Below, one piece after another: positions 1 through 13,100 of a stretch of DNA of 13,107 bases. The DNA is from a virus (lineage: Duplodnaviria > Heunggongvirae > Uroviricota > Caudoviricetes), in IMG/VR virus record IMGVR_UViG_2648501150_000039. One strand, written 5' to 3'. A model generated the notes under the pieces. That model made no database searches. It saw only the letters and a list, made by a program, of their open reading frames with translations, and was not told where the DNA came from. The number at the start of each line of letters is the position of its first letter. The stretch's first letter is position 1. The translations under genes were made by a program, and so were the position numbers.

Positions 1-16
1 AACATGAGCAAACAGA

Positions 17-46
17 CAAAAAAAGGGCCAGCCAATTGGCCAGCCC
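17..46 (-). terminator. Putative rho-independent terminator downstream of the 204..1133 gene
   Basis: Read on the minus strand, plus 25..46 forms an imperfect GC-rich hairpin (GGGCTGGCC-AATT-GGCTGGCCC, two G-U pairs) followed by a 7-nt U tract (plus 17..24 is AAAAAAA). It lies about 160 nt past the stop of the minus-strand CDS. Confidence 0.45.
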
Positions 47-203
47 TTCTTAACAGGATGTCGCTTAAGCGAAATCTTAGTTAAGACGCTTTTACATGAT
101 ACCATTGATAAACATGCATTTTTCATTATAAACAGTTAGTTATATGTATCACTAGTGTAGTCAAGTGCAGCCATAAACATGCTGTGTGGGCAGATTGTGG
201 ACA

Positions 204-1133
204 CTACTTATTTCCCTGTCCAATCTTACCCGCAACTGCCTCGGTAAGCTTTACTAAGGTTTCAAGTTCATTTTTGTCTAATTTTCTTGCTTCAATAATT
301 TCAGTAGTCTGCCCTGATTCTAGTTTTCCAACTCTTGAGCTAAAATTAATTTTATCCAGAAGGTCTATCATATCGATATCTTTCTGGCTAGCCATTACAA
401 GCTTTATAATGGCATAGCTTTCCTCACGTGAACGTTTTATTGCCTCGTAATAGCGAAACTCATCCATCGTAACCCGATATTGCTTCAAAAAGAAAAATGC
501 GATTAACTCCAAGAAAATCAACACGCCAAAATTAGGGAGAAGATACATTACCTTGGTTACCGCATCATCCTTAGCATCAATTACATGTGATTGAGAATAG
601 AAGAAACCTAATCCAACTATTGCAAAACAAACACCGACTAATAAATAAAGACTACCGCGAGAATATATGTTTTTCGCAAGACCTTCAGAGCTATTAATCA
701 AACCTTTAAGATAAAAATCCAGAGATTCATCTTCATCAGCAGCAGCCCTTTCCTCTTGAGCCTTCTTGAGTAGTTTTATCTCATTTATAATATCGACAAT
801 ATTAAACATCGATGATTTGTCGACTGAATCACTCCCTGTAATTCTCATAAACATTCTTTGGATTGGAGACACACCATAGATAATGGTGTAAACGATTACA
901 AATGACACTGCGAATATTGACCTGATAAAGCTCGGCAAATGTGTAAGATCTGCTCTCGCACTGGGAAATAAATAATAAAAGGTTGAGTCTAATATCCCTG
1001 TAGCAAAAATTACATTTGCAACTAGAAAGACTGCACCTATCTCAACTAAATTATAAAAACCACGAGTGCGTACCCTAATGACTTTGGCCTCGGTCATTCT
1101 TGGAGGTGTTTCGATGGTTGGCTCACTCATCAT
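204..1133 (-). CDS. Hypothetical membrane protein, four predicted transmembrane helices in two hairpins separated by a charged coiled-coil-like linker; function unknown
   Basis: 309-aa uninterrupted ORF. Hydrophobic stretches LVEIGAVFLVANVIFATGIL, IFAVSFVIVYTIIYGV, LYLLVGVCFAIVGLGFFY and VLIFLELIAFFFL. AGGA lies upstream of an ATGATG start. The gene is visibly AT-rich compared with the tail genes. I recognise no family. Confidence 0.6.
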   Translation of the reverse strand: MMSEPTIETPPRMTEAKVIRVRTRGFYNLVEIGAVFLVANVIFATGILDSTFYYLFPSARADLTHLPSFIRSIFAVSFVIVYTIIYGVSPIQRMFMRITGSDSVDKSSMFNIVDIINEIKLLKKAQEERAAADEDESLDFYLKGLINSSEGLAKNIYSRGSLYLLVGVCFAIVGLGFFYSQSHVIDAKDDAVTKVMYLLPNFGVLIFLELIAFFFLKQYRVTMDEFRYYEAIKRSREESYAIIKLVMASQKDIDMIDLLDKINFSSRVGKLESGQTTEIIEARKLDKNELETLVKLTEAVAGKIGQGNK

Positions 1134-1410
1134 ATAATCCTGTTAAATTAGAAATAGGGTTAAGAGTTACAGCTTCTTCTAAATGATCTGGTGCAAAATG
1201 AGCGTATCTCATGGTTTCCCTAATGTTAGAATGGCCCAAGATTCGTTGCAGTACTAAAATGTTCCCACCATTCATCATAAAGTGACTCGCAAATGTATGA
1301 CGTAACACATTCGTTTTTTGCCCTTCAGCTAACTCTATATCGGTCAGAGCGAGCATTTTCTTGAACTCCTGATAGCAGGGGTGGAACATTTTTCCCTGTA
1401 AAGGAGCCAA
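1123..1410 (-). pseudogene. Tyrosine recombinase (phage integrase) C-terminal fragment, 5'-truncated
   Basis: The 95-aa translation carries the catalytic C-terminal signature of tyrosine recombinases (VLRHTFASH ... LGHSNIRETMRYAH, with the His/Arg and Tyr boxes). The N-terminal two thirds are absent: sequence upstream of 1410 encodes tail-fibre segments on the other strand. The stop TGA overlaps the ATGATG start of the 204..1133 gene. Confidence 0.85.
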
Positions 1411-1447
1411 CTCGTCATATAGCCACCGAGGGATCGGTACTGTACGA

Positions 1448-1473
1448 TTCTTCTTTCCCTTGGTTTGGGAGAA
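1448..1473. repeat. Left crossover site of invertible segment (gix/hix-like, about 26 bp)
   Basis: The reverse complement of 1458..1474 (CTTCTCCCAAACCAAGG) matches 3466..3482 (CTTCTCCTAAACCAACG) at 15 of 17 positions, in inverted orientation. The half-site TTCTCCCAAACC resembles the Hin/Gin half-site (TTCTTGAAAACC / TTATCCAAAACC as I recall them). The central dinucleotide is AA/TT. The site sits in the fibre reading frame and encodes G-L-G-E. Confidence 0.7.
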
Positions 1474-1959
1474 GGCTCTGCATTACCTGTTGGCGTCCCT
1501 GTTCCGTGGCCTTCAGCCACACCGCCAACAGGCTGGCTGAAATGCAATGGTGCAGCTTTTTCTGCTGAAGAATACCCGGAACTGGCAAAGGCTTATCCGG
1601 CAAATAAATTGCCTGATTTACGTGGTGAGTTTATTCGTGGCTGGGATGACGGACGGGGGATTGATACAGGTCGCTCTATTTTAAGTATTCAGGGGTATGC
1701 AACGGAGGATCATGCTCATGGATTACCGTCAAGATCCACGATTGTGACTGATGCAACGATTAATTTCTATTTTGATGAAAGCTGGGTAAATAGTGGCACT
1801 GACATTATCAAAAGAGGAAACACAAACGATGCCGGATTACCAGCACCGGATTATGGAACCTTTAAAACATATAAACAATCAGTGGCTGGTTTAGGTGCCG
1901 CAGCCTCAGAAACGCGTCCGCGTAATATTGCATTTAACTATATCGTGAGGTCAGCCTGA
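1465..1959 (+). CDS. Tail fibre C-terminal variable segment (Sv-like, tail-collar type); lacks the N-terminal constant part
   Basis: Translation contains tail-collar-like motifs (PTGWLKCNGAAFSAEEYPELAKAY, LPDLRGEFIRGWDDGRGIDTGR). The frame is open only from 1423 and has no upstream coding sequence to join. The stop overlaps the start of the next gene (TGATG). Confidence 0.8.
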   Translation: MGEGSALPVGVPVPWPSATPPTGWLKCNGAAFSAEEYPELAKAYPANKLPDLRGEFIRGWDDGRGIDTGRSILSIQGYATEDHAHGLPSRSTIVTDATINFYFDESWVNSGTDIIKRGNTNDAGLPAPDYGTFKTYKQSVAGLGAAASETRPRNIAFNYIVRSA

Positions 1960-2561
1960 TGCATAAAGCAATATTAAATAGTGAGCTTATTGCAACAAAG
2001 GCAGGGGATGTTACCGTTTATAACTACGATGGTGAAACACGGGAATATATTTCCACGTCAACTGAATATCTTGCGGTTGGCGTCGGTATCCCGGCATGTT
2101 CTTGTTTAGATGCGCCAGTTACACATAAAGCTGGTTATGCAATCTGCCGTTCTGCAGATTTTAACTCATGGGAATATGTGCCAGACCATCGCGGTGAAAT
2201 CATCTATAGCACCGAAACAGGAGAATCGAAAGAAATCACAGCTCCGGGTGATTATCCTGAAAATACAACCACTATCGCCCCGTTAACGCCATACGATGAA
2301 TGGGATGGTGAGAAATGGGTAACAGATACTGTGGCACAGCATAGCGCCGCAGTAGGCGCGGCAGAAGCACAGCGTCAGTCACTGATTGATAATGCAATGG
2401 CTTCCATTAGTCTGATTCAGCTGAAATTGCAGGCCGGACGGAATCTGACGCAGGCAGAAACCGCCCGACTTAACGCTGCGCTGGATTACATTGACGCGGT
2501 GACGGCAACAGATACCAGCACCGCGCCGGATGTCATCTGGCCTGAACTGCCGGAGGCGTAG
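1959..2561 (+). CDS. Tail fibre assembly protein (Tfa / P2 gpG / Mu U family)
   Basis: 200 aa, immediately downstream of the fibre variable segment. The C-terminal DVIWPELPEA matches the conserved Tfa C-terminal motif. Confidence 0.85.
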   Translation: MHKAILNSELIATKAGDVTVYNYDGETREYISTSTEYLAVGVGIPACSCLDAPVTHKAGYAICRSADFNSWEYVPDHRGEIIYSTETGESKEITAPGDYPENTTTIAPLTPYDEWDGEKWVTDTVAQHSAAVGAAEAQRQSLIDNAMASISLIQLKLQAGRNLTQAETARLNAALDYIDAVTATDTSTAPDVIWPELPEA

Positions 2562-2976
2562 GCCATTCAATATCTGGCGCACCGGAAGTATCGACCAGTT
2601 CCAGTGCGTCCAGATAATCCAGCCACAAATTATATTGCGCCAGTTCCTCACCTTTCAGGCGACCAATCGCCGCTTTACCAGGCCATTGCTTACTGTATAT
2701 GTATTCGTTGACCTGATTAATCAATTGCTGCTTTTCCAGTTCGGCTGCAGCAATTTGTTCCTCATGAGTTGGCGGTGGAATTTCCCCCCAGGTGGGAAGG
2801 CCATCATCACCCGCGATGCGTACTTTCCCTTGCAACGTTCTGTCTTCAATAAATTCCAGGTAAGTGTCATATGTCACTTCGACAACATCAGCAAGTTCCC
2901 ATCCGGCCTGTTCATATTTCGCCACATCATTTTTAGCGAAAAAACTATTTTTTGAGGCGCTATAAACCATTTCCAT
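2533..2976 (-). CDS. Alternative tail fibre assembly protein (Tfa', opposite orientation)
   Basis: 147 aa, convergent with the other tfa gene and overlapping its 3' end by 29 bp. The C-terminal DIEWPTPPAV matches the Tfa motif. This is the Mu U/U'-like arrangement. Confidence 0.8.
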   Translation of the reverse strand: MEMVYSASKNSFFAKNDVAKYEQAGWELADVVEVTYDTYLEFIEDRTLQGKVRIAGDDGLPTWGEIPPPTHEEQIAAAELEKQQLINQVNEYIYSKQWPGKAAIGRLKGEELAQYNLWLDYLDALELVDTSGAPDIEWPTPPAVQAR

Positions 2977-2977
2977 A

Positions 2978-3553
2978 TTAATACCCTACTGCAATATAAA
3001 AAACTGATTCACCAGCGTCCTGAGAACCTACCCCCGGAACGCCAGACCAGGTTTTGTTAATGAATGCAAAACTGGTATTACTCAGATCAGATGCTCTGTA
3101 CATCGGGCTGAACATCCAGTAGTTGGCTCCATATGTTTGTCCGAAAACAATGCCATAGCACTGATTTGTAAATGGCGTAGAAAATAATTTTCCACCAGTA
3201 CCAGCGATAGTCCCGAATCGCATCTGGAACCCATTCGGGAAATTAATTCCGCCTGCCGGTGAAGACCAGTAAGACATATCAGGTATTTGCCCAGCACTAT
3301 TTCCCACGTTTTTTGTTGCAACGGTTCCTAACCCAAGATTAGCTCTTGCGTCAGATTTATTTGTTAACTCATAAAGATTATTTGCCTTTTGAAGTGCTCC
3401 TATTATGCGTAAATCATCACCAGCGGCAACGGTTCCGACTGTCGTGCCCACATCCCTTTTCGCCGCTTCTCCTAAACCAACGTTTTCGTTTTTATCCCTA
3501 CCTATACCAACTCTGTATTTTTCACGAAACAAAGAGGATGTTTTTTTATGCAA
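2978..3553 (-). CDS. Alternative tail fibre C-terminal variable segment (Sv'-like)
   Basis: Open frame on the minus strand running through the right crossover site, where it encodes NENVGLGE (the same GLGE junction as the left site). It is glycine-rich and fibre-like, and lies immediately upstream of tfa' on the same strand. The tracked start is an artefact; there is no constant N-terminal region. Confidence 0.7.
   Translation of the reverse strand: MHKKTSSLFREKYRVGIGRDKNENVGLGEAAKRDVGTTVGTVAAGDDLRIIGALQKANNLYELTNKSDARANLGLGTVATKNVGNSAGQIPDMSYWSSPAGGINFPNGFQMRFGTIAGTGGKLFSTPFTNQCYGIVFGQTYGANYWMFSPMYRASDLSNTSFAFINKTWSGVPGVGSQDAGESVFYIAVGY
3467..3492. repeat. Right crossover site of invertible segment (gix/hix-like)
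   Basis: TTCTCCTAAACC-AA-CGTTTTCGTTTT; 3466..3482 is the inverted-repeat partner of 1458..1474. It lies 55 bp upstream of the invertase start codon. Confidence 0.7.
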
Positions 3554-4147
3554 ATTGGCTATATTCGTGTGTCAACAAATGACCAGAACACGGATTTACA
3601 ACGCAATGCACTGAACTGCGCAGGATGTGAACTGATTTTTGAAGATAAAATCAGCGGAACGAAATCAGCCAGACCGGGATTGAAAAAACTGCTCAGAACG
3701 CTATCAGAAGGAGATACGCTGGTTGTCTGGAAGCTGGACAGACTGGGCAGAAGTATGAAACACCTGATCACGCTTATTGAGGAATTGCGGGAAAAAGGTG
3801 TTAATTTCCGTAGTCTGACGGACAGCATTGACACATCAACACCCATGGGGCGTTTCTTTTTTCACGTCATGGGGGCTTTAGCCGAAATGGAACGTGAATT
3901 AATTGTAGAGCGTACACTGGCCGGGCTGGCAGCAGCACGCGCACAAGGACGCATTGGCGGACGTCGCCCGAAGTTGACAAAAGAACAACACGAGCAAATA
4001 GCGAGGCTGATTAAAAACGGTCATGACAGGAAACAACTGGCGATCATTTACGACATCGGCATATCGACGATTTATCGTTATCACCCTGTAGGCGATATAC
4101 AGGCTGAAGAAACAACCAGGCAGACTCAGGAAAATAAAAACCGCTAA
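3548..4147 (+). CDS. Site-specific DNA invertase, serine recombinase (Hin/Gin/Pin/Cin family)
   Basis: The N-terminus MQIGYIRVSTNDQNTDLQRNAL contains the catalytic serine motif of resolvase/invertases. A C-terminal helix-turn-helix region follows (GRRPKLTKEQHEQIARLIKNGHDRKQLAIIYDIGISTIYRY). AGAGGA lies upstream of the ATG. The gene is adjacent to the invertible fibre segment. Confidence 0.95.
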   Translation: MQIGYIRVSTNDQNTDLQRNALNCAGCELIFEDKISGTKSARPGLKKLLRTLSEGDTLVVWKLDRLGRSMKHLITLIEELREKGVNFRSLTDSIDTSTPMGRFFFHVMGALAEMERELIVERTLAGLAAARAQGRIGGRRPKLTKEQHEQIARLIKNGHDRKQLAIIYDIGISTIYRYHPVGDIQAEETTRQTQENKNR

Positions 4148-4164
4148 TCTGACCATTAGCGGTT
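4139..4164. terminator. Bidirectional terminator hairpin between convergent invertase and gpU genes
   Basis: AACCGCTAAT-CTGACC-ATTAGCGGTT forms a 10-bp stem. T/A-rich flanks on both sides (AAAATAAAAA upstream, TTTTGCG downstream). The invertase stop codon lies inside the stem. Confidence 0.55.
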
Positions 4165-4173
4165 TTGCGTTAA

Positions 4174-4668
4174 TCAAAACAGCCCTTTAACGGAGCTGGC
4201 CGCGCTGTTAAGGGATGATGTGACCTTATCTTTGAAGCCGGACAGCATATCACTGAACGATGAGGATTGCAGGCGCTCCCGCAAATCCTCATCACAGCGT
4301 TCAAGAGTCAGTGAAAATTCTATCTTTTTCGCCTTACCGTAGCGATCAAACTCGGAACGGGTCGTATTCGTTTCAGTCAGTACATACATGCCGTAAATCT
4401 GCCCGACACCATCAATCAGAGGCCAGGGGCGTCCTGTATATGCCTGCGTGGTCAGCAACGAAAGCGACACTTCGCCACCTGTAATTTCAGGATAAAGCAC
4501 GCCGGAAAGCACGATGCGATCATCACCTGCGCCGATATACTGCCAGCTTGCTGAACGGTTAACGCGTTCATTTTTCACATGCCGCCAGCTTTTGTTTTGC
4601 TGTAACTGCTGATGCGGCAATGTGCGCAGCTCAAAAACAAACATGCCGTAGATCATCATCATGGCCAT
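4174..4668 (-). CDS. Phage tail protein, P2 gpU-like
   Basis: 164-aa ORF directly downstream of the tape measure gene in the same orientation, matching the position and size of gpU in the P2 FI-FII-E-T-U-D order. The exact start among several N-terminal Met codons is uncertain. Confidence 0.75.
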   Translation of the reverse strand: MAMMMIYGMFVFELRTLPHQQLQQNKSWRHVKNERVNRSASWQYIGAGDDRIVLSGVLYPEITGGEVSLSLLTTQAYTGRPWPLIDGVGQIYGMYVLTETNTTRSEFDRYGKAKKIEFSLTLERCDEDLRERLQSSSFSDMLSGFKDKVTSSLNSAASSVKGLF

Positions 4669-4674
4669 GACTCC

Positions 4675-7524
4675 TCAATCTTTATCGTAAAAACTGCCAC
4701 GCCCGGCACGGGCGCGCCGTTCCATTTCTGCCCTGACCATTTCGCCAATCAGTTTCGCCAGTTCGCGGGGATTCTGTGTAACAACGTTATGCAGATGAAC
4801 ATGAATTTCACCGCCAAATCCGGAGGCAACAGGCTCCCGGTTACGGGAAGTTGCAGGAACTGATGCCACTGGCGATCGTATAGCCTCCGCCACCGGGCGG
4901 GAGCTGGCCGCAACAACAGGGACCAGCGCCGGAGGCAGCGGAGCCGGAACCACGGGTGTGATAGTAATTGCGGGGGCAGGCTTACTGACCTGCGCAATCT
5001 TCCGCTCCTGCCACTCCCCACGAACAGCAAGTGCGCGGGGCAGGTTCTTAAAGACAATATCGCCGGGGCCAATGCGTTTTTTCGTCTCATCAACCAGCTT
5101 ACCTGTGTTATCAGCAATTTTGCTGAGTCTGCGTAGCGTACCGGTATTGTTGTCTGTGAGCGGTTTGTTGTCTCTGGGTTTATCGCCTTTTTTGTCGTCG
5201 ACCTTATCTGACGGGGCCGGGCCGGGAGTCCATGGTTTCTGAACCATTTTCTTGAGAACCGGATCCCATTCCCACATTACAGGAGCCTTTGAAGCGTTCT
5301 CTATTTTCTTTCTCGCCCGTTCCGCTTCATCCGGAAGCACTCCGAGCTTTTCAAGTATCCACGCCAGTGAATCCATCAATGCTTTTGTTGGCGTCAGGAC
5401 AAGCTCTATCGCTCCACCGAGTACCCTGCCGAATACCTCGCCAGCACTGGTACATTTATCCAGCGTTTCCTTGCTGGACTCCATCGGTGACAGCAGCGAT
5501 TTAAACCAGTTAAAGACCTGAATAATCCCATCGCGCACGACATCAAAAACTGGACCGAACCGTTCAAAGGTTTCGCGCAACGGAGCCAGCCGTTCCATAA
5601 TCCCACTGAACACCCCTGCATAAAACGCCTTGATGGGTTCCCAGTATTTCCAGATGAGAACCGCCGCAGCCACAAACGCAGCAGCAATCAATCCGACCGG
5701 GCTGAACAGCGCCCCGATAGCGCCCCCCAGTAACGAAACGGAACCCGTCACCATTCCCCATAGTGCTGGCAGGAGCCTGACAGCATTCATTGATCCGGTC
5801 AGGAGGGAAAAGCCAAGACGCAGTTTTGCCAGCGGGCCAGCAAGCACACCAATAGCCAACGACAACGAGCCGACCGTTGCAGTCATCGCCAGCAATGCCC
5901 CACCTGCAATCAGTAGCTGGCGCGTCAGTGCCGGATGGGCCTGCGCCAGCGCCGTCACCTTTGATACCACCCGCGTGAGCCACTGCGTGACAGAACGCAG
6001 CGGACCGTCAATCAGATCTGCAATGCGGATGCGCAACCCTTCCCATGCACTGCCGAGTGATTTCAGATCGCCGTCAAGGTTGTTGGCCATAACCTTTGCT
6101 GTGCGTTCAGCCTCACCGCGCGCGCCTTCAAGTTCTTTTCTCAGTTTGGGTAAGGAGCCGTCACCCGCTGCATCAACGAGCGCCATAAACGATGTGAAAG
6201 CCTCTTCTCCGGCAATGTCCTTAAAGAACGATACCCGGTCAACTTCCCCGTATTTGCGGGTGGCTTTATAAAGGTCGGCCAGTACATCCTCCATCGGGCG
6301 CATTTTGCCGTTCGCGTCAGAGACAGCCACACCCAGCTCTTTCAGCGCCTCTGCTGCCGCCTTTGGCGGTGATGCCAGACGAGCCAGGCTGGCACGCATT
6401 GCCGTCCCGGCATCACTCCCTCTGATGCCCATATTCGCCAGCACGCCCGCCATCGCAGCGGCCTGCTCCAGCGATATTCCCAGCTTACCCGCCACCGGAC
6501 CTGCATATTTCATGGTTTCGCCCAGCGCGCGAAGGTCAGTGTTGGTACGGGTAAACGCCGCTGTAAGCGTGTCGCCAACCCGGTCCATCTGGTCAGCAGA
6601 GAGGCCGAACTGCGTCAGGATATTTGAGCCAATATCCGCCGTCTCGCCGAGATCCATACCGCCAGCCGTTGCCATGCTCAGCACGCCGGGAAACGCAGCC
6701 TGAATGGCCTGCGGAGTAAAACCAGCCATTGCAAGAAATGCCTGTCCACTGGCGGCATCTCCAGCGGTGAACTGCGTTTCAGAGCCAAGTTTTAACGCCT
6801 GCTCACGCAGCGCCTTAAACTGTGGGCTGTTTTTGTCGATTCGCGTCAGTGCCTGAACGCGGGACATCTCTTTCCCGAACCCAATCGCGGGCTGCAAAAA
6901 ACGCCCGGCAGCATAGCCGCCCGCCGCTGCCGCACCTGTTGCCAGTGCACCACCTGTTTTCAGTTTTCCCGCGGTTTCCTGCGCGCGCGAATACCGCTCA
7001 CGCGCCCGCGTTACACGCGCAAGCGCCTGCCGTTCGCGTTCAAGCTGGTTGTTGTACTGTTCGGTGCGTCTGATGGCCTGCTGGATGGTGTTATCGCTGC
7101 CTGTCAGGGAAATGCCGTGGCGTTTCAGCTCTCCGCCAAGCTCCCGCATTTTCTGAATCTCCCGTGTGCGCGATTCATTCAGGCGTTCAAGCCGGGTGCT
7201 TAACTGCTGCATCAGCTTTTGTTGTTTTTCGCTGAGCACTGTACCCGTGCGTTGTAACTGATTAAGGGCGTTAAGCTGGCGTCGTGCTTTCACGATACCC
7301 GCATCCGCTTTACTGACAGCGTCGCGGGCGCGCTCAAATGAACGCGCCTGACGCTCGAGATTTTTGATCGCCCCCTGCGTTCGCTGGATGGAGTCACCAA
7401 ACTGCCCCATCAGGCGGCGTGCGTTTTCTGCAGGTCGGGTCAGCCTGTCAACGGCGCTGAAAGCGACCCGGATATCAAGAGTCTTCATTGTCTGCATTCC
7501 CGCTGCGAAGTGCCGCCCGCTCAC
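4675..7524 (-). CDS. Tail tape measure protein (P2 gpT-like)
   Basis: 949-aa ORF with a coiled-coil N-terminal third (repeated QRTxxL, ERxRQALAR-type heptads), a central Gly/Ala-rich hydrophobic segment, and a position between E/E' and U. The true start may be an internal Met (MQTMKTL), overlapping the end of E'. Confidence 0.9.
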   Translation of the reverse strand: MSGRHFAAGMQTMKTLDIRVAFSAVDRLTRPAENARRLMGQFGDSIQRTQGAIKNLERQARSFERARDAVSKADAGIVKARRQLNALNQLQRTGTVLSEKQQKLMQQLSTRLERLNESRTREIQKMRELGGELKRHGISLTGSDNTIQQAIRRTEQYNNQLERERQALARVTRARERYSRAQETAGKLKTGGALATGAAAAGGYAAGRFLQPAIGFGKEMSRVQALTRIDKNSPQFKALREQALKLGSETQFTAGDAASGQAFLAMAGFTPQAIQAAFPGVLSMATAGGMDLGETADIGSNILTQFGLSADQMDRVGDTLTAAFTRTNTDLRALGETMKYAGPVAGKLGISLEQAAAMAGVLANMGIRGSDAGTAMRASLARLASPPKAAAEALKELGVAVSDANGKMRPMEDVLADLYKATRKYGEVDRVSFFKDIAGEEAFTSFMALVDAAGDGSLPKLRKELEGARGEAERTAKVMANNLDGDLKSLGSAWEGLRIRIADLIDGPLRSVTQWLTRVVSKVTALAQAHPALTRQLLIAGGALLAMTATVGSLSLAIGVLAGPLAKLRLGFSLLTGSMNAVRLLPALWGMVTGSVSLLGGAIGALFSPVGLIAAAFVAAAVLIWKYWEPIKAFYAGVFSGIMERLAPLRETFERFGPVFDVVRDGIIQVFNWFKSLLSPMESSKETLDKCTSAGEVFGRVLGGAIELVLTPTKALMDSLAWILEKLGVLPDEAERARKKIENASKAPVMWEWDPVLKKMVQKPWTPGPAPSDKVDDKKGDKPRDNKPLTDNNTGTLRRLSKIADNTGKLVDETKKRIGPGDIVFKNLPRALAVRGEWQERKIAQVSKPAPAITITPVVPAPLPPALVPVVAASSRPVAEAIRSPVASVPATSRNREPVASGFGGEIHVHLHNVVTQNPRELAKLIGEMVRAEMERRARAGRGSFYDKD

Positions 7525-7711
7525 GCCAGCTAACCACTTCGCCGGGCGTCATCATGAAGATTTCGGCGGGCGACCAGTTAAAAATAACGGCAATATCTGC
7601 CACAAAGTCTTCTATGTGCTCAAAGCACACAACCGTGATCAGGCTTCCGTCGCCTGTTCGTTCTTCCCGCCAGAGTCCGCACCGCTCAAAAAATTTACGG
7701 CAACCACACAT
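7475..7711 (-). CDS. E' frame: C-terminal extension of the E+E' tail assembly chaperone, reached by -1 frameshift
   Basis: This ORF is in the -1 frame relative to E, begins around the slippery heptamer, and ends overlapping the start of T, as in the P2 E/E'/T arrangement. It is not an independent gene. Confidence 0.7.
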   Translation of the reverse strand: MCGCRKFFERCGLWREERTGDGSLITVVCFEHIEDFVADIAVIFNWSPAEIFMMTPGEVVSWRERAALRSGNADNEDS

Positions 7712-8004
7712 AACTGAATAAAGTCACGGGATGCCATTTTTTTGATCGTCACTTCATCCAGTCGCGGTGATGTCACGCGTGACAGCAGCGTAAACATGGA
7801 TTCCGCTTTCAGATTCAGCACATCAGACAGCGACAAATCTCGCAGAGATCCAGCCTGCTCAATAGCCCCGGTGATCTCCACATACGTGATTTTTTCGCCG
7901 CCTCGCTCAATTGGTTGGGTAAGTTTTACGCCACGCTCACTGGTTTCTTTCACAGTGTCAGCAACTACCGTGTTTTCGGTATCGATGTTTTTCGTCTCTT
8001 TCAT
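7639..8004 (-). CDS. Tail assembly chaperone, P2 gpE-like (0-frame product)
   Basis: 121-aa ORF between the tail tube and tape measure genes. AAAGGAG lies 7 nt upstream of the ATG. It contains the slippery site near its 3' end. Confidence 0.75.
   Translation of the reverse strand: MKETKNIDTENTVVADTVKETSERGVKLTQPIERGGEKITYVEITGAIEQAGSLRDLSLSDVLNLKAESMFTLLSRVTSPRLDEVTIKKMASRDFIQLCVVAVNFLSGADSGGKNEQATEA
7687..7693 (-). other. Programmed -1 ribosomal frameshift slippery heptamer T_TTT_TTG (E to E+E')
   Basis: The minus strand reads GTA AAT TTT TTG AGC in the E frame (V N F L S). Slipping back one nucleotide enters the 7475..7711 frame (RKFFERCGLW...). TTTTTTG is the heptamer used by P2-like E/E' genes. 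Confidence 0.75.
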
Positions 8005-8058
8005 CAGGAAACTCCTTTCAGTCAGAGGCGGCGCACTGCGCCGCCTGCATATTACTTA

Positions 8059-8571
8059 TCAGCCAAGCCCAAGCGCGGAACGGATGCGATCGGGCACAAT
8101 GTCCTTGCCGTCCTTCCGGTAAATGAAGTTCAGCAGGTCAATCTCCCACAACGGGCGATCGTTAACACTCAGCTTGTAGTAGGTGTTTTTAATGGCGTAA
8201 GTGTGTGATGTGGCTTCGCCCTGTTTGGCTTCCCCCATATCAATTTCCGTCACACGTCCGCGCATCTCGATTTCATACAGATCGCTTTCTGCATCGGTGT
8301 AGTATTCACCCGCAAAACGCAGCAGCGTGCCGTCAATCGTGCCGCCATACTTAAGGAACAGCTCACGAACTGCGCCCCCCATGACAAAGCTCGCATCAAG
8401 CGCGGAGTCGTCCAGACCGAGATCAATACTTACCGCACCCATCATGCCACCACCCCGGTAGCTGTCGGTTTTGCGCGTCAGCTTAGGCAGAGTGACGGAC
8501 GTCACCTTACCCACTTCGTTTTCACCATCCACAAACAGCGTAAAAAAGCGAAGATGTTTTGGTACAGCCAT
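8059..8571 (-). CDS. Tail tube protein (P2 gpFII-like)
   Basis: 170 aa, immediately downstream of the sheath gene with a TGATG stop/start overlap. Size and position match the P2 tube protein. Confidence 0.85.
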   Translation of the reverse strand: MAVPKHLRFFTLFVDGENEVGKVTSVTLPKLTRKTDSYRGGGMMGAVSIDLGLDDSALDASFVMGGAVRELFLKYGGTIDGTLLRFAGEYYTDAESDLYEIEMRGRVTEIDMGEAKQGEATSHTYAIKNTYYKLSVNDRPLWEIDLLNFIYRKDGKDIVPDRIRSALGLG

Positions 8572-9755
8572 CAGGCACCTCCCAGCACCGCAAATGCGGG
8601 ACCAAAGAATTCATCAGTAAACGACTGGTAAAGCTCCATGTCTTCCAGCGGGGGAACAGGCGTATATTTGTAGCGAATACGCACACGCCCCTGACGTAAA
8701 TTCGTGGTGCCGTTATCCACCACGTCATACCAGCACGACGCCCCAATCAGTTTCCCGGCAGTAACCAGTGAATCCAGTTTTGCCCTGATGGCACTGATAA
8801 CATCTTTCACGTTCGCAGGCGTCAGTGGACTGTCGATGGTTTCAAACTGCGCTTCCGCAATTGAATCAGCCAGCACCTGTGCGGTTCGGGTATACACCTC
8901 AAAGATGTAGGCGTTCGTTTCCGGTGTGCGGTTGCCCCAGAAGCGGAACCCGTTGCGACGAATAATGGTCGTGATTTCTTTGTTGTTGAGGCTGTTGGCA
9001 TCGCTGTCTTCGGCCTGCAACGACCAGAACACATGCCTGGACATCCCCAGCACATTTTTAACCGGAACGTTGGACAGTGATTTGTGCCATCCCTGCTCAT
9101 GGTCAATGTACGCACGAAGGCCGCACGCATAGGCAGGCGCGGGGAACGTTTCGTTTTTGCCACTTTTCGGGTTGTAGGCGATGAAGTCCGGCCATAAGAG
9201 CATCACCTCACGTTCGTTGAATTTCTGGCGGTAGGTAATCACCTCAGCCATCGTGTTACAGCCGTGACATGAGGCATACACAAACGCGCGCAGTTTACCC
9301 GCAATCACGCACAGGGATTTTGTCACCGCCTCCGTGTCCAGCTCCGGCGCGGCCAGAATACGCGGACGGTATCCGATGCTTTCATCCTGCTCTGCAACAA
9401 GCAGCGCATACATCCCCGTATAGCTGCCGTCAGATTCAGAACCACCGATAACCAGTTGATCCTGCGTCTTTCCGTCTTCTTCTTTGTGTTCAGCCACGCG
9501 AACGACGATCACCTTTGTGCTCACCTGGTCTGCGATGGCCTTAAGCGCACGATAAAGCGTCCCCGTTGTCCCGCATTTTCCCAGCACGTCATTGACGCGG
9601 GTCAGCAGTGTGGGCTTGTTCAGCGGGAACAGCTTCGCGTCCGCATCATCCGCCGTTGCCACGATACCGATAACGCTGGAATCAACATCGTTAATCGCTG
9701 TTACCAGGTCGGTATTTTCCGTAACACGGGCACCATGAAAACGAGTTTCACTCAT
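8571..9755 (-). CDS. Contractile tail sheath protein (P2 gpFI-like)
   Basis: 394 aa. Motifs I recall from P2 FI are present: FPLNKP, KLRAF, YRQKF, WPDF, EQGWHKSLSNV, RRNGFRFWGNRT, YTRTAQV, YTPVPPLE. AAGGGG lies upstream of the ATG. Confidence 0.92.
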   Translation of the reverse strand: MSETRFHGARVTENTDLVTAINDVDSSVIGIVATADDADAKLFPLNKPTLLTRVNDVLGKCGTTGTLYRALKAIADQVSTKVIVVRVAEHKEEDGKTQDQLVIGGSESDGSYTGMYALLVAEQDESIGYRPRILAAPELDTEAVTKSLCVIAGKLRAFVYASCHGCNTMAEVITYRQKFNEREVMLLWPDFIAYNPKSGKNETFPAPAYACGLRAYIDHEQGWHKSLSNVPVKNVLGMSRHVFWSLQAEDSDANSLNNKEITTIIRRNGFRFWGNRTPETNAYIFEVYTRTAQVLADSIAEAQFETIDSPLTPANVKDVISAIRAKLDSLVTAGKLIGASCWYDVVDNGTTNLRQGRVRIRYKYTPVPPLEDMELYQSFTDEFFGPAFAVLGGA

Positions 9756-9912
9756 AGCTTTAGCCCCTTGTATCCGTTAAATGATTCGGCAACAATCATC
9801 ACCCACCACGCGCGTAATCTCACCCCTGTGCCGTTCTCCCGATCCGGCGACAACAAAAAGCAGTAACCCCCTCCGCACGCACATGCGACCATGCCGCACA
9901 GGGAGGGAACAG

Positions 9913-11022
9913 ATGACCGATACCACCATGCAATTGCTCAGTCAGGGCACAGACCCCGTGAAAATGCCGGATTTTGATATTCTCGCGGAGGGTAAAACGC
10001 TGTCAGGCGTGGCAGAGCGCCTGATGAGCCTGTCACTGACCGACAACCGGGGATTTGACGCGGACCAGCTCACCATCACGCTGGATGATGCGGATGGTCA
10101 GTTGCAGCTACCGCCACGGGGCGCGCGCCTGACGGTTCTCATTGGCTGGAAAGGAGAACCGCTGACAGAAAAAGGCACTTACATTGTTGATGAAATCGCT
10201 CACGAAGGACCGCCGGACAGGCTGACTGTTTCAGCCAGAAGCGCAGATTTTCGGGATGAATTTAACGTTAAACGTGAGGTGTCCTGGCATGATGTGACCG
10301 TTGAGCGTGTGGTATCCGCCATCGCTCATCGGTATGGTCTGAAACCGCAAATCAGCGAAATGCTGATGGATATCGAAATCGACCACGCCGACCAGACCGA
10401 AGAAAGCGATATGTCCTTCCTTACGCGCATGGCGGAAATGCTGGGCGCAATCACCACGGTAAAAAGCGGCAATCTGTTATTCATCATGCCAGGTGGTGGC
10501 GTGAACGCACAGGGCCAGCCGTTGCCATCGTTCGCCATCACACGCAGCAGCGGCGATCGCCATCAGTTCCGCATTGCTGACCGCGAGGCGTATACGGGGG
10601 TACGCGCTTACTGGCTTGATCTTAATTACGGGAAAAAGAAAAAAGTCAGCGTGAAACGCCGCAAACCGCCAAAACCCAAAAAGGAGAAAAGCAGCAGCCG
10701 TGAAGGTGATTATATGGAAGGCGCGGAAGGCAATGTGTTTGTGTTACGCAAGACTTATCAGAACGAGCAGGCAGCAAGACGCGCAGCGGCGGCAAAGTGG
10801 CAGCAGCTACAACGCGGAGCCGCATCATTTTCCATCACGCTGGCGCGTGGACGTGCAGAACTCTACCCCGAAATGCATGGCACGGTAACAGGATTTAAAA
10901 GCGAGATTGATAATCAGGACTGGATTATTGCAAAAGCCGAGCACACCATTGATAACAGCGGCTTTACCACGCAGCTTGAGCTTGAGGCAAAAATCCCGGA
11001 ATGGATAGCAGAAACAGCGTGA
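9913..11022 (+). CDS. Phage late control gene D family tail protein (P2 gpD-like)
   Basis: Long ORF; the likely start is the ATG at 9913, preceded by GGGAGGGAA (the tracked ORF starts upstream at 9781). Size is about 370 aa. The call rests on overall resemblance to P2 gpD as recalled and on its position next to the other P2 tail genes and ogr. Confidence 0.8.
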   Translation: MTDTTMQLLSQGTDPVKMPDFDILAEGKTLSGVAERLMSLSLTDNRGFDADQLTITLDDADGQLQLPPRGARLTVLIGWKGEPLTEKGTYIVDEIAHEGPPDRLTVSARSADFRDEFNVKREVSWHDVTVERVVSAIAHRYGLKPQISEMLMDIEIDHADQTEESDMSFLTRMAEMLGAITTVKSGNLLFIMPGGGVNAQGQPLPSFAITRSSGDRHQFRIADREAYTGVRAYWLDLNYGKKKKVSVKRRKPPKPKKEKSSSREGDYMEGAEGNVFVLRKTYQNEQAARRAAAAKWQQLQRGAASFSITLARGRAELYPEMHGTVTGFKSEIDNQDWIIAKAEHTIDNSGFTTQLELEAKIPEWIAETA

Positions 11023-11075
11023 ATGTCTTAAATGTATTAGTTCAGATATGTACTAGCAATAAACATAGTTAGAAA

Positions 11076-11091
11076 GGCCGCTAACGCGGCC
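11076..11091. terminator. Hairpin between convergent gpD and the 11114..12283 gene (possible bidirectional terminator)
   Basis: GGCCGC-TAAC-GCGGCC, a 6-bp GC stem with a tetraloop in an AT-rich context. It is located after both stop codons. The U-tracts are weak. Confidence 0.4.
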
Positions 11092-11113
11092 ATATTAATT
11101 AAAACTCCAGTTA

Positions 11114-12283
11114 CTAATATTGAGAAAGATAATCAGCGACTCCATCTGCAGGGTTTCGCCCACCAGTATAAATTGTGCCTAATTCTTGAGGTGTAACATA
11201 TGTTGTAGGCCAAATGGCCATATTTTTAAAATAGTTATCTATTTTTATTCTTTGAAGTTCTTTAAAGAGATAATCTTCTAAGTCATTTCTTTTTAGACAG
11301 TTAACATAATAAGCAGCCGCACTTGCTACTATATCTACAATTTGTAATTGAGGATACTCTTGTGATGAATGGAATGTCAAAGAACGAGCTTTAATTGGCA
11401 ATTCAAATTTTCTTCGATCATAACCATATGCCTCCGTAATTTTTGATATATCCATAAATTTATCAAAAATATCTTTCTTCTCTGTAATAGCTTTGGAATC
11501 GTCATGCTTAATATAAAAACCATTAGGGTATAATTTACCCCATTCTACACAGTGTCTAAAGAGGCTTGGTATAGATGGATCTAATGTGCTTTTCTCAACA
11601 CCTTCCAATATATCATCAATATCGCTTCTGGTAATACTAATTCTGTTTATTATATCTGTGAATATCTTATCACTTGAGCATATCTTTAACTCATCAATTA
11701 CCCTGTAAAATTCATCAATTGACTCAGTCGATTGGCTTCTGATCATATTCATAAAACACTGATACATTACCTCTGTTTTTTCCTCCCCACAGAAAGCAGG
11801 GAAACAGAAATAGTAAACATTAGACAGAGCTAGATTCTGTCCATTTATATAAAGATCTATTCCTCTATTAGAGCACCACGTCTCGATCAAAATATCAACA
11901 ATCTTTGCTGTTAGCATGTATTTTTTATCGACCAAGTATATTTTAACATTCTCTTCATTGACATATTTGCTTTCAAGAAGCCTAATGATGCCATCCTGAC
12001 CAGATTTTCTACGTCTAAGAGTTTTAAAGTGGGCTTCTGTTGGAGACTTGCTTCCGGTTAGTTCTAATGCCTTAAGCGCATCCTGTTTACTAATACTACT
12101 TGAACTTAAGGTAAAAACAGGTTGCAATGGATCGAGTAAATTTCCGCCAGTATTACCTGATTCATCAAAAAATATATCAGGCTTTATATACAACATTTTA
12201 TTTATCTTTGCCGCTAAGTTTCTTTTTTTCTCATTTTCTCGCTTAATTTTATTATCTCGCCTACGTTGACTATTCTTTCCCAT
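11114..12283 (-). CDS. Hypothetical protein, AT-rich cargo gene; possible DUF3800-like family (motif-level recall only)
   Basis: 389-aa uninterrupted ORF antisense to both gpD and ogr. K/R-rich N-terminus, then DIFFDESGNTGG; near the C-terminus QLQIVDIVASAAAYY. These resemble the DESG and Q-x-x-(A/V)-D signatures I associate with DUF3800. Codon usage is strongly AT-biased, unlike the flanking phage genes. Confidence 0.65.
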   Translation of the reverse strand: MGKNSQRRRDNKIKRENEKKRNLAAKINKMLYIKPDIFFDESGNTGGNLLDPLQPVFTLSSSSISKQDALKALELTGSKSPTEAHFKTLRRRKSGQDGIIRLLESKYVNEENVKIYLVDKKYMLTAKIVDILIETWCSNRGIDLYINGQNLALSNVYYFCFPAFCGEEKTEVMYQCFMNMIRSQSTESIDEFYRVIDELKICSSDKIFTDIINRISITRSDIDDILEGVEKSTLDPSIPSLFRHCVEWGKLYPNGFYIKHDDSKAITEKKDIFDKFMDISKITEAYGYDRRKFELPIKARSLTFHSSQEYPQLQIVDIVASAAAYYVNCLKRNDLEDYLFKELQRIKIDNYFKNMAIWPTTYVTPQELGTIYTGGRNPADGVADYLSQY

Positions 12284-12515
12284 AAATACCTCACAATCTG
12301 AATTAGATATCCCAATTTAACGCATTAATAACATAATGTTATGATATCACACAATCAAAATAACGTGCTGATTTTAATGTATCAGGTTTGACTAGCTATT
12401 CTTTGATAAGCGAATAATAAGAATGTCAGCCCCTCAACTCAAAGCGGTTTAGTCAGTTGGAATCGGAGCTAGTAGAACTTAAAATAACAGAAGCACCACG
12501 TTAAGGGAGGTCTCT

Positions 12516-12776
12516 ATGTTCCGTTGTCCGCTTTGTGGCGCATCTGCCCGTATCCGCACAAGTCGTCCGGAAAATGATTCAAACACCGTGCGGCAAAAGT
12601 ATTACCAGTGTAACAACCTGGAATGCGGCGTATGCTTCTCAACACTGGAAGCCTTCCATAAATTCACATCAAAACACGCCTCCGCCGTTCACTCTTCAGA
12701 AGGTATCCCGTGGCATGAGCTGCCAGCTTCACACAGGGGAAACAATCAGATGAGTTTGCCTTTACCTCAGAACTAA
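12516..12776 (+). CDS. ogr: Ogr/Delta-family zinc-finger late transcription activator
   Basis: The N-terminus MFRCPLCGASARIRTSR ... YYQCNNLEC gives a C-x2-C ... C-x4-C zinc-finger spacing close to P2 Ogr (MFHCPLC ... CQNVNC). Strong SD AAGGGAGG lies upstream. It sits downstream of gpD, as in P2. Confidence 0.85.
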   Translation: MFRCPLCGASARIRTSRPENDSNTVRQKYYQCNNLECGVCFSTLEAFHKFTSKHASAVHSSEGIPWHELPASHRGNNQMSLPLPQN

Positions 12777-12785
12777 CAGGCAGAA

Positions 12786-12814
12786 TTGCCGGATTAACAA
12801 AAAAGCGATAGATT
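12786..12814 (+). promoter_or_regulatory. Putative sigma70 promoter for the hok-family mRNA
   Basis: TTGCCG (12786..12791), a 17-nt spacer, then TAGATT (12809..12814). The predicted transcript would start about 145 nt upstream of the toxin ATG, giving the long structured leader typical of hok mRNAs. Confidence 0.3.
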
Positions 12815-12836
12815 ACGCGCGGGTGCCTTTCGGCTG

Positions 12837-13100
12837 ATGGTCGGAGGGAATACCCGAAGGCCAGATGTGGAAAGGCCCCGGAAAACATCTCTGTTTAACC
12901 GAGGCCCTAACCGCATTACCTTGACAAGTGAAAGGTTAGCGCCTCTCCGGAAAAGGAGCAAGTGCTATGTCGCAAAAATCGCTTACGGCCATCACGTTCT
13001 GCGTGACGGCAATCCTCATCATCTGGATGCTGCACGGTTCACTGTGCGAAATACGGATGAGCTTCTGGGGAGCGGAGTTTGCGGCGTTCTTACAGTGTAA
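12837..13100 (+). other. mok-like overlapping reading frame (possible translational-coupling ORF for the hok-family toxin)
   Basis: 87-codon ORF in a different frame that overlaps almost the whole toxin ORF and ends 7 nt before it. This is analogous to mok in hok/sok loci, but may be fortuitous. Confidence 0.3.

Follow-up and report, generated by a model that had tools for sequence, protein, structure and literature searches.

We analysed a window of 13,107 nucleotides, which is the whole stretch of DNA given under the IMG/VR virus record IMGVR_UViG_2648501150_000039 and in which an earlier note, made from the sequence alone, had proposed an invertible tail-fibre cassette. The cassette is a Din-family (Gin/Cin/Pin/Hin-like) invertible tail-fibre C-terminus system of a P2/186-like prophage, and in the window it is an orphan that does not work as a host-range switch. 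In the account that we consider probable, a deletion joined a crossover site of the fibre gene to a quasi-site in the integrase gene (int) of the prophage, most likely through the invertase; the hybrid site thus formed would have remained active, and the remnant would later have become a chimera. Tail-fibre switching by invertases of this family is long established, also in E. coli P2-like prophages, and the twist found in the window is a modest further example of a known system, not a new mechanism. Here, by way of a quasi-site, a Din-family invertase seems to have removed the greater part of the prophage that encodes it, and as a natural instance of such an event the case is a clean one.

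Crossover sites and the hybrid left junction

The cassette is bordered by the two 17-bp inverted repeats that had been reported: positions 1458-1474 (CCTTGGTTTGGGAGAAG) and the reverse complement of 3466-3482 (CGTTGGTTTAGGAGAAG) were identical at 15 of 17 positions. The core TTGGTTTRGGAGAAG was present in exactly two copies in the window, one per strand, and it was absent from all of 200 dinucleotide-preserving shuffles. A repeat search with a 9-nt seed misses this pair, whose longest exact runs are of 7 nt, and the pair was recovered by a pattern search and by a half-site matrix, for which 12 natural half-sites were taken from related loci. The repeats belong to two crossover sites in inverted orientation (Table 1), with imperfect 12-bp half-sites flanking an asymmetric 2-bp centre. 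When the window was scanned with the matrix, the right and left sites were the top two 26-mers, with 20.9 and 18.6 bits, respectively, and the next one reached 8.2 bits; the same matrix also picked the gix sites in the Mu locus and the pix sites in the e14 locus. The outer halves of the window sites were weaker (5.4 and 7.2 bits), yet within the range of native invertase-side halves. The right site was identical in the intact relatives L006, L008, and L011. The left site had the same inner half-site (TTCTCCCAAACC) and AA/TT centre as e14 pix, and the right inner half differed from that of pix in one base. Both sites fitted the family consensus (Sandmeier 1994, as quoted in PMC4134206), and these results support the proposed resemblance to Hin/Gin half-sites.

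Table 1. Features of the window and the sites compared with them (positions are those of the window).
Feature	Position	Strand	Remarks
Left crossover site, hybrid	1448-1473	+	26 bp, TTCTTCTTTCCC TT GGTTTGGGAGAA, centre TT at 1460-1461; outer half int-type, central TT and inner half fibre-type (three-way comparison)
Right crossover site	3467-3492	+	26 bp, TTCTCCTAAACC AA CGTTTTCGTTTT, centre AA at 3479-3480
Intact int site, strain 1190			TTCTTCTTTCCC TT CGTTTTAGTGAA
Intact fibre-gene site, L002			TTCTTAATTACC TT GGTTTGGGAGAA
Tyrosine integrase 3' fragment	1123-1461	-	Cut at the crossover dinucleotide; N-terminal two-thirds deleted
Collar-type tail-fibre C-terminal fragment	1462-1959 (open reading frame called 1465-1959, TTG start)	+	PF07484 Collar, E = 1e-14
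tfa, assembly gene cognate to the collar-type end	1959-2561	+	PF02413, E = 2.8e-31; phrog_105, E = 2e-96
Homologous-recombination breakpoint interval	2532-2658	.	Mismatch maps against E2348/69 and L008
tfa', assembly gene cognate to the gp53-like end	2533-2976	-	PF02413, E = 4e-30; phrog_188, E = 8e-57
Alternative gp53-like fibre C-terminal fragment	2978-3478	-	phrog_1396 tail fibre, E = 2e-27
Din-family serine DNA invertase	3548-4147	+	199 aa, apparently intact; PF00239, E = 1.5e-51, plus PF02796
Weak quasi-site inside the invertase gene	3879-3904	+	TAGCCGAAATGG AA CGTGAATTAATT; used in L005, not in the window
Perfect 12-bp-stem hairpin	4137-4166	.	Between the convergent invertase and gpU genes (repeat I18)
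309-aa open reading frame	204-1133	-	Downstream of int, at the attL end of the prophage, adjoining yfiB; cargo gene
Remaining tail module: gpU, tape measure, E/E', tube, sheath	4174-9755	-	PF06995 for gpU; Pfam of the identical locus L010

The comparison of the left site with the intact int site of strain 1190 and the intact fibre-gene site of L002 identified it as a hybrid. Sequence of the int type gives way to that of the fibre type within the CCTT at 1458-1461, which both have in common. These four bases hold the central TT, and in serine invertases the central dinucleotide is the point of cutting and strand exchange. Homology to intact fibre genes starts exactly at the left site (window 1448/1458). 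On the other side, the window up to position 1466 was 99.7% identical to the 3' end of the intact int found in 13 complete E. coli genomes, a gene that has 1038 bp in strain 1190. The int fragment of the window (int') matched PF00589 with E = 1.2e-12 and covered only positions 111-170 of the 172 in the profile, and the RefSeq label for the int copy of E. coli E2348/69 is "incomplete; missing N-terminus".

Within the segment, two alternative C-termini, each with its cognate assembly gene, are placed head to head, and the Pfam and PHROG matches agreed with the earlier assignment of a fibre end plus tfa to the plus strand and of the alternative pair to the minus strand. The collar-type fragment aligned to the C-terminal part only of fibre families, e.g., to positions 481-636 of 673 in phrog_523. 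The gp53-like fragment gave a weak match to PF21882, under the curated cut-off; its open frame extends to 3553, but only as read-through beyond the segment, and in L006 this end is fused to an intact fibre gene.

Each crossover site had been placed in a fibre reading frame encoding G-L-G-E. This was correct for the inner side of both sites, where G-L-G-E is encoded in frame with the fibre C-terminal open reading frame (ORF) inside the segment, and incorrect for the outer side of the left site, where the fibre frame meets a stop at 1420-1422 and the DNA is the antisense of the truncated int. The window lacks the fibre N-terminal part, and in L010, whose locus is identical, none of the genes called between int' and the segment encodes a fibre N-terminal domain (PF12571, PF03406). 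Both in the window and in L010, yfiB is followed by int' and this directly by the segment, and genes for baseplate, head, and lysis are lacking between the two; the genes I, J, W, and V through cI, present in L013 (the intact prophage of strain 1190, 32.6 kb), are gone. Since the constant 5' fibre part is absent, inversion cannot swap one fibre C-terminus for the other, and the predicted exchange of a C-terminus together with its cognate assembly gene does not apply to the window. What stands of the description as a Mu G-segment-like cassette is the kind of system, its sites, and the adjacent serine invertase; the functional host-range switch does not. In cassettes like this one, the outer flank needs checking before they are annotated as functional host-range switches.

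The stretch at 1887-1904 (repeat I9), within the collar-type fragment, has an in-frame G-L-G stretch and is 78% complementary to the right-site region. It was rejected as a third crossover-like site, as beyond the two sites no 26-mer exceeded 8.2 bits. A third crossover-like site, GGCATAAAAACG TT GGTTTGGGGGAA, was observed in L001 (strain TUM13770) at 7530-7555, inside a degenerate segment; the fibre gene of this locus is annotated as a pseudogene without C-terminus, and another tail-protein fragment there is frameshifted.

Orientation states, the invertase, and the chimeric window

Isolates with the int junction were found by looking up the tfa protein. The int-fibre junction of E. coli E2348/69 is identical to that of the window (100% over window 1-1700), and the other prophage proteins of E2348/69 share accessions with those of strain 1190. 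The int flank was joined to the collar-type end in L003, L016, L020, and L024, and to the gp53-like end in L017, L018, and L022, where the collar-type end was at the invertase flank; L016 and L022, both multi-megabase contigs, are in opposite states. In these E2348/69-type remnants, the flanks and the 1,888-bp segment were at least 99.9% identical between states, and the orientation exchange falls inside a 15-bp perfect repeat, swapped at the central TT. The occurrence of both states with the same hybrid junction indicates that the hybrid site is recombination-competent and that the orphan switch of the E2348/69-type remnants keeps flipping. Judged from these sequences, flipping is probably still possible for the switch left in the window, with no gene remaining for it to act on. 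As the hybrid site still works, a switch can persist after the loss of the gene under its control. In the intact prophages L006 and L008, which have the same right site and invertase as the window, near-identical segments (98-99.7% to the window) were found in opposite orientations, in complete fibre genes.

At the hybrid site of L022 (around 5376-5400; GCA_900450255.1), the centre was a single T (CCC T GG), not TT. The assembly may be in error at a site that flips, or one base pair may really have been lost, which would lock the switch.

A second quasi-site, inside the invertase gene, has been used in L005 (GCA_032036435.1). This locus has undergone an inversion that involved the fibre-side site and the invertase-gene quasi-site, and the two reciprocal junctions are present, at 9060-9090 and 11462-11487, with the exchange exactly at the central dinucleotide; the invertase gene is split, leaving a 92-aa ORF with the helix-turn-helix only. 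Collectively, the deletion in the window, the active hybrid site, and the split invertase gene of L005 suggest that off-target serine-invertase recombination feeds prophage decay and mosaicism in E. coli.

The invertase gene of the window begins where it had been placed, 55 bp outside the right site: counted from its ATG (3548), the 26-bp site ends 55 bp away, and position 3482 is at a distance of 65 bp. The protein matched the Mu Gin structures 4m6f and 3uj3 with E = 3e-91, the Gin match covering residues 1-185; it was 83% identical to e14 PinE, and aligned in full length to Gin and PinE. It has a catalytic N-terminal domain, with Ser9 within the motif YIRVSTNDQ, and a C-terminal helix-turn-helix, and the identical protein was listed in 560 blocks of the contig collection. 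Certain invertase-specific residues have been assigned to the contact with Fis and the enhancer (McLean et al., PMC3798978), and these are kept here as K46, K47, R50, Q150, R153, and L154 (Hin 47/48/51 and 151/154/155). The first 240 nt of the gene were identical to pin at 190 positions and to gin at 169. A Fis-bound recombinational enhancer of about 65 bp, with two Fis sites, is expected in the 5' part of invertase genes of this family; scanning this part with the Fis consensus gave many weak candidates, and several G-N13-C 15-mers were conserved, such as the one at gene nt 94-108, with an all-A/T core.

The identical invertase was also observed in the prophages L025 and L027 (LT903847.1 and CP057281.1), which contain, upstream of the invertase, up to four separate collar-type fragments besides a full fibre gene. 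These arrays suggest multi-site, Min/shufflon-like complex inversion regions.

The window is itself chimeric. Positions 1-12976 were 100% identical to contig JHRF01000033.1 (GCA_001265355.1). Against E2348/69, one mismatch was counted up to 2658 and dense mismatches after this position, and against the intact prophage L008 there were none from 2532 to 3600; over 2280-12970, the window and L008 were 99.75% identical, with nearly all the differences before 2532. The mismatch maps indicate that an old remnant was joined to a second P2-like prophage by homologous recombination where tfa and tfa' overlap at their 3' ends. In LT903847.1, a genome of the E2348/69 lineage that also holds the remnant, a second prophage at another chromosomal location encodes this 199-aa invertase.

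Origin of the deletion and competing explanations

In the intact prophage L013, the int quasi-site ranked third among about 32,600 26-mers, behind the two real sites, with a matrix that was not trained on it. Its score was 17.3 bits, and the next in this prophage were 13.4 bits with any centre and 10.7 bits with an AA/TT centre; only 4 of 200 block shuffles of the prophage reached 17.3 bits anywhere. The central dinucleotide of the quasi-site has the same orientation as that of the fibre-side site, 21,073 bp away. From this direct orientation, exchange between the two sites predicts a deletion of 21,073 bp, and the window has the structure of the predicted product.

We propose that a deletion of about 21 kb would have joined the fibre-side crossover site to the quasi-site in the prophage's own int, taking out the int N-terminal part, the immunity, replication, head, lysis, and baseplate genes, and the constant 5' fibre part. 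Since the exchange point is within the CCTT that holds the central TT, the most likely deletion agent would be the invertase itself, acting on two directly oriented sites. Truncation of the integrase would have trapped the remnant in the chromosome. The hybrid site, with a native inner half and a tolerable outer half, would still support inversion; the segment would keep flipping, yet neither orientation would restore a fibre gene. At a later time, the right half of the segment, the invertase, and the tail genes would have been replaced via homologous recombination with the second P2-like prophage. A deletion generated via inversions only was rejected, since no DNA is lost through inversion. 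Metagenome contigs were also scanned for the exact pattern of the hybrid junction, and neither of its two states gave a match.

Several points weigh against this account. Wild-type Fis-dependent invertases strongly prefer inversion over deletion between direct repeats, and a single intramolecular deletion should therefore be rare or need an unusual synapse. The enhancer was not located with confidence, as the consensus scan of the invertase 5' part gave no convincing pair of Fis sites at the expected spacing. Strain 1190 is the closest intact relative, not the actual parent, and its collar-type half-segment was about 92-93% identical to that of the window. Flipping was seen in E2348/69-type remnants, whose invertase is 72% identical to that of the window, and for the chimeric arrangement of the window itself a single state was observed (L010). 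The quasi-site that recombined in L005 scored only -1.6 bits, and this indicates that the matrix score is no reliable predictor of site use. Lastly, the CCTT shared at the junction also allows microhomology-mediated illegitimate recombination. The deletion would then be the product of this ordinary process, ending at a crossover site by chance and with no involvement of the invertase, in line with the fact that only 4 bp are necessarily common at the switch point and with the general reluctance of invertases to delete. However, one endpoint is the exact centre of a real crossover site, the other, in the same register, is the best non-cognate match of the whole prophage (rank 3 of about 32,600), the central dinucleotides agree in the orientation from which a deletion is expected, and the site that results still recombines. 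We regard chance microhomology as unlikely, and deletion by the invertase at the int quasi-site as the better explanation of the junction.

Two other explanations concern the role of the cassette rather than its origin. If it were an intact host-range switch, a complete fibre gene would run across the left site, and inversion would alternate two receptor-binding ends on virions. All the parts of the cassette and the invertase are intact, and intact relatives do operate in this way (L006 compared with L008, and the EC958 prophages, PMC4134206); but the sequence upstream has no fibre N-terminal coding part, contains the in-frame stop and the antisense of the truncated int, and in the window and L010 lacks the baseplate, head, and lysis genes between int' and the segment, so this explanation is already refuted for the window by its sequence and has hardly any probability left. 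The remnant might alternatively have been taken over by the host, with one orientation expressing a free receptor-binding fragment with Tfa that alters the cell surface or keeps other phages from adsorbing, as has been reported for StfE2 and the P segment of e14. This agrees with the intact ORFs, tfa genes, and invertase, with the retention of a remnant that still flips in several isolates, and with the precedent (PMC12529663). Nevertheless, a consensus scan of the plus strand upstream of the left site gave no promoter-like site, no Shine-Dalgarno sequence was seen there, the TTG start of the 1465-1959 ORF is unsupported, and neither the 309-aa ORF nor the DUF3800 gene described below nor the invertase had a PADLOC match; we hold such a takeover to be rather improbable. 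It is likewise improbable that the orphan switch was domesticated, the remnant being retained and kept flipping for a free receptor-binding fibre fragment that is released with its chaperone in one orientation and alters the cell surface or blocks superinfecting phages, or that the cassette serves as a recombination donor re-arming incoming P2-like phages, of which the chimera in the window would perhaps be an example. If one of these were true, self-deletion by invertases at quasi-sites would be a general route that traps P2-like prophages. The orphaned remnant, produced most likely by the invertase and left with an active hybrid site, is the reading that we retain.

Related invertible systems and neighbouring genes

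In laboratory plasmid systems, Iida and Hiestand-Nauer reportedly observed a true crossover site recombining with poorly matching chromosomal or plasmid sequence, the central dinucleotide governing the choice. The event in the window differs from this use of the Cin quasi-site in being a natural, fixed 21-kb prophage deletion with the hybrid site still in use. The work on this quasi-site (cixQ, phage P1; Iida and Hiestand-Nauer 1986, 1987) is cited in PMC4134206. In the latter paper, Forde et al. (2014) described invertible tail-fibre segments with the same 26-bp site family in the Phi1, Phi2, and Phi4 prophages of EC958, detected both orientations in long reads, and proposed for Phi4 that the invertase of another prophage acts in trans. 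The EC958 Phi2 sites (TCCTCAATTACCTT GGTTTAGGAGAA and GAGAGATAAACGTT GGTTTGGGGGAA) are those found in L007, L009, and L012, except for one base in the second. Unlike the cassette of the window, the EC958 segments lie in complete fibre genes, and no hybrid or quasi-site junction is described in PMC4134206.

The P segment with PinE of e14, a cryptic prophage of E. coli K-12, shares with the window, in addition to the invertase and half-site similarities given above, the layout of stf end and tfa, tfa' and stf' end, and invertase, and both prophages are defective. The difference is that the 5' part of the e14 fibre gene (stfP/ycfK) still reads into the segment, whereas the outer flank in the window is the truncated int and the left site is a hybrid. 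The Mu G segment with Gin is similar in architecture and logic, with 26-bp sites in frame in the fibre gene; it differs in the GA/TC centre and other half-site details of gix, in the size of the segment (about 3 kb), and in the gene S, which is complete across the boundary. Inversion of the P segment of e14 by PinQ has been reported to generate a chimeric StfE2 with an anti-adsorption phenotype (PMC12529663). That system and the window have in common an invertible fibre cassette in a cryptic prophage and a Din-family invertase possibly encoded elsewhere; the chimeric protein and the phage-adsorption phenotype belong to the StfE2 work, and no comparable product is predicted for the window.

Regarding the neighbouring genes, the 309-aa ORF had no Pfam match and matched weakly phrog_5157, a family of unknown function; it also follows the intact int in strain 1190, and it is kept with int at the yfiB attachment site in several E. 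coli genomes. At the other end, the tail module was 96% identical to that of the P2-like prophages L001 and L002, and gpD and ogr also remain downstream. The gpU-to-sheath block is inverted when compared with the E2348/69 remnant (L003, 19178-24290), where sheath, tube, E, T, U, and D are all on the plus strand; this is the canonical P2 order. In the window, the block sits between the invertase gene and gpD, a layout also found in many E. coli prophages (L001, L002, L006, and L008), and no well-scoring crossover-like site was found at its borders. The hairpin that follows the invertase gene is probably a bidirectional terminator. Between gpD and ogr, a 389-aa DUF3800 gene was observed at 11114-12283 on the minus strand; L002 is without the entire stretch 11033-12476, and the gene looks like a cargo ("moron") insertion.

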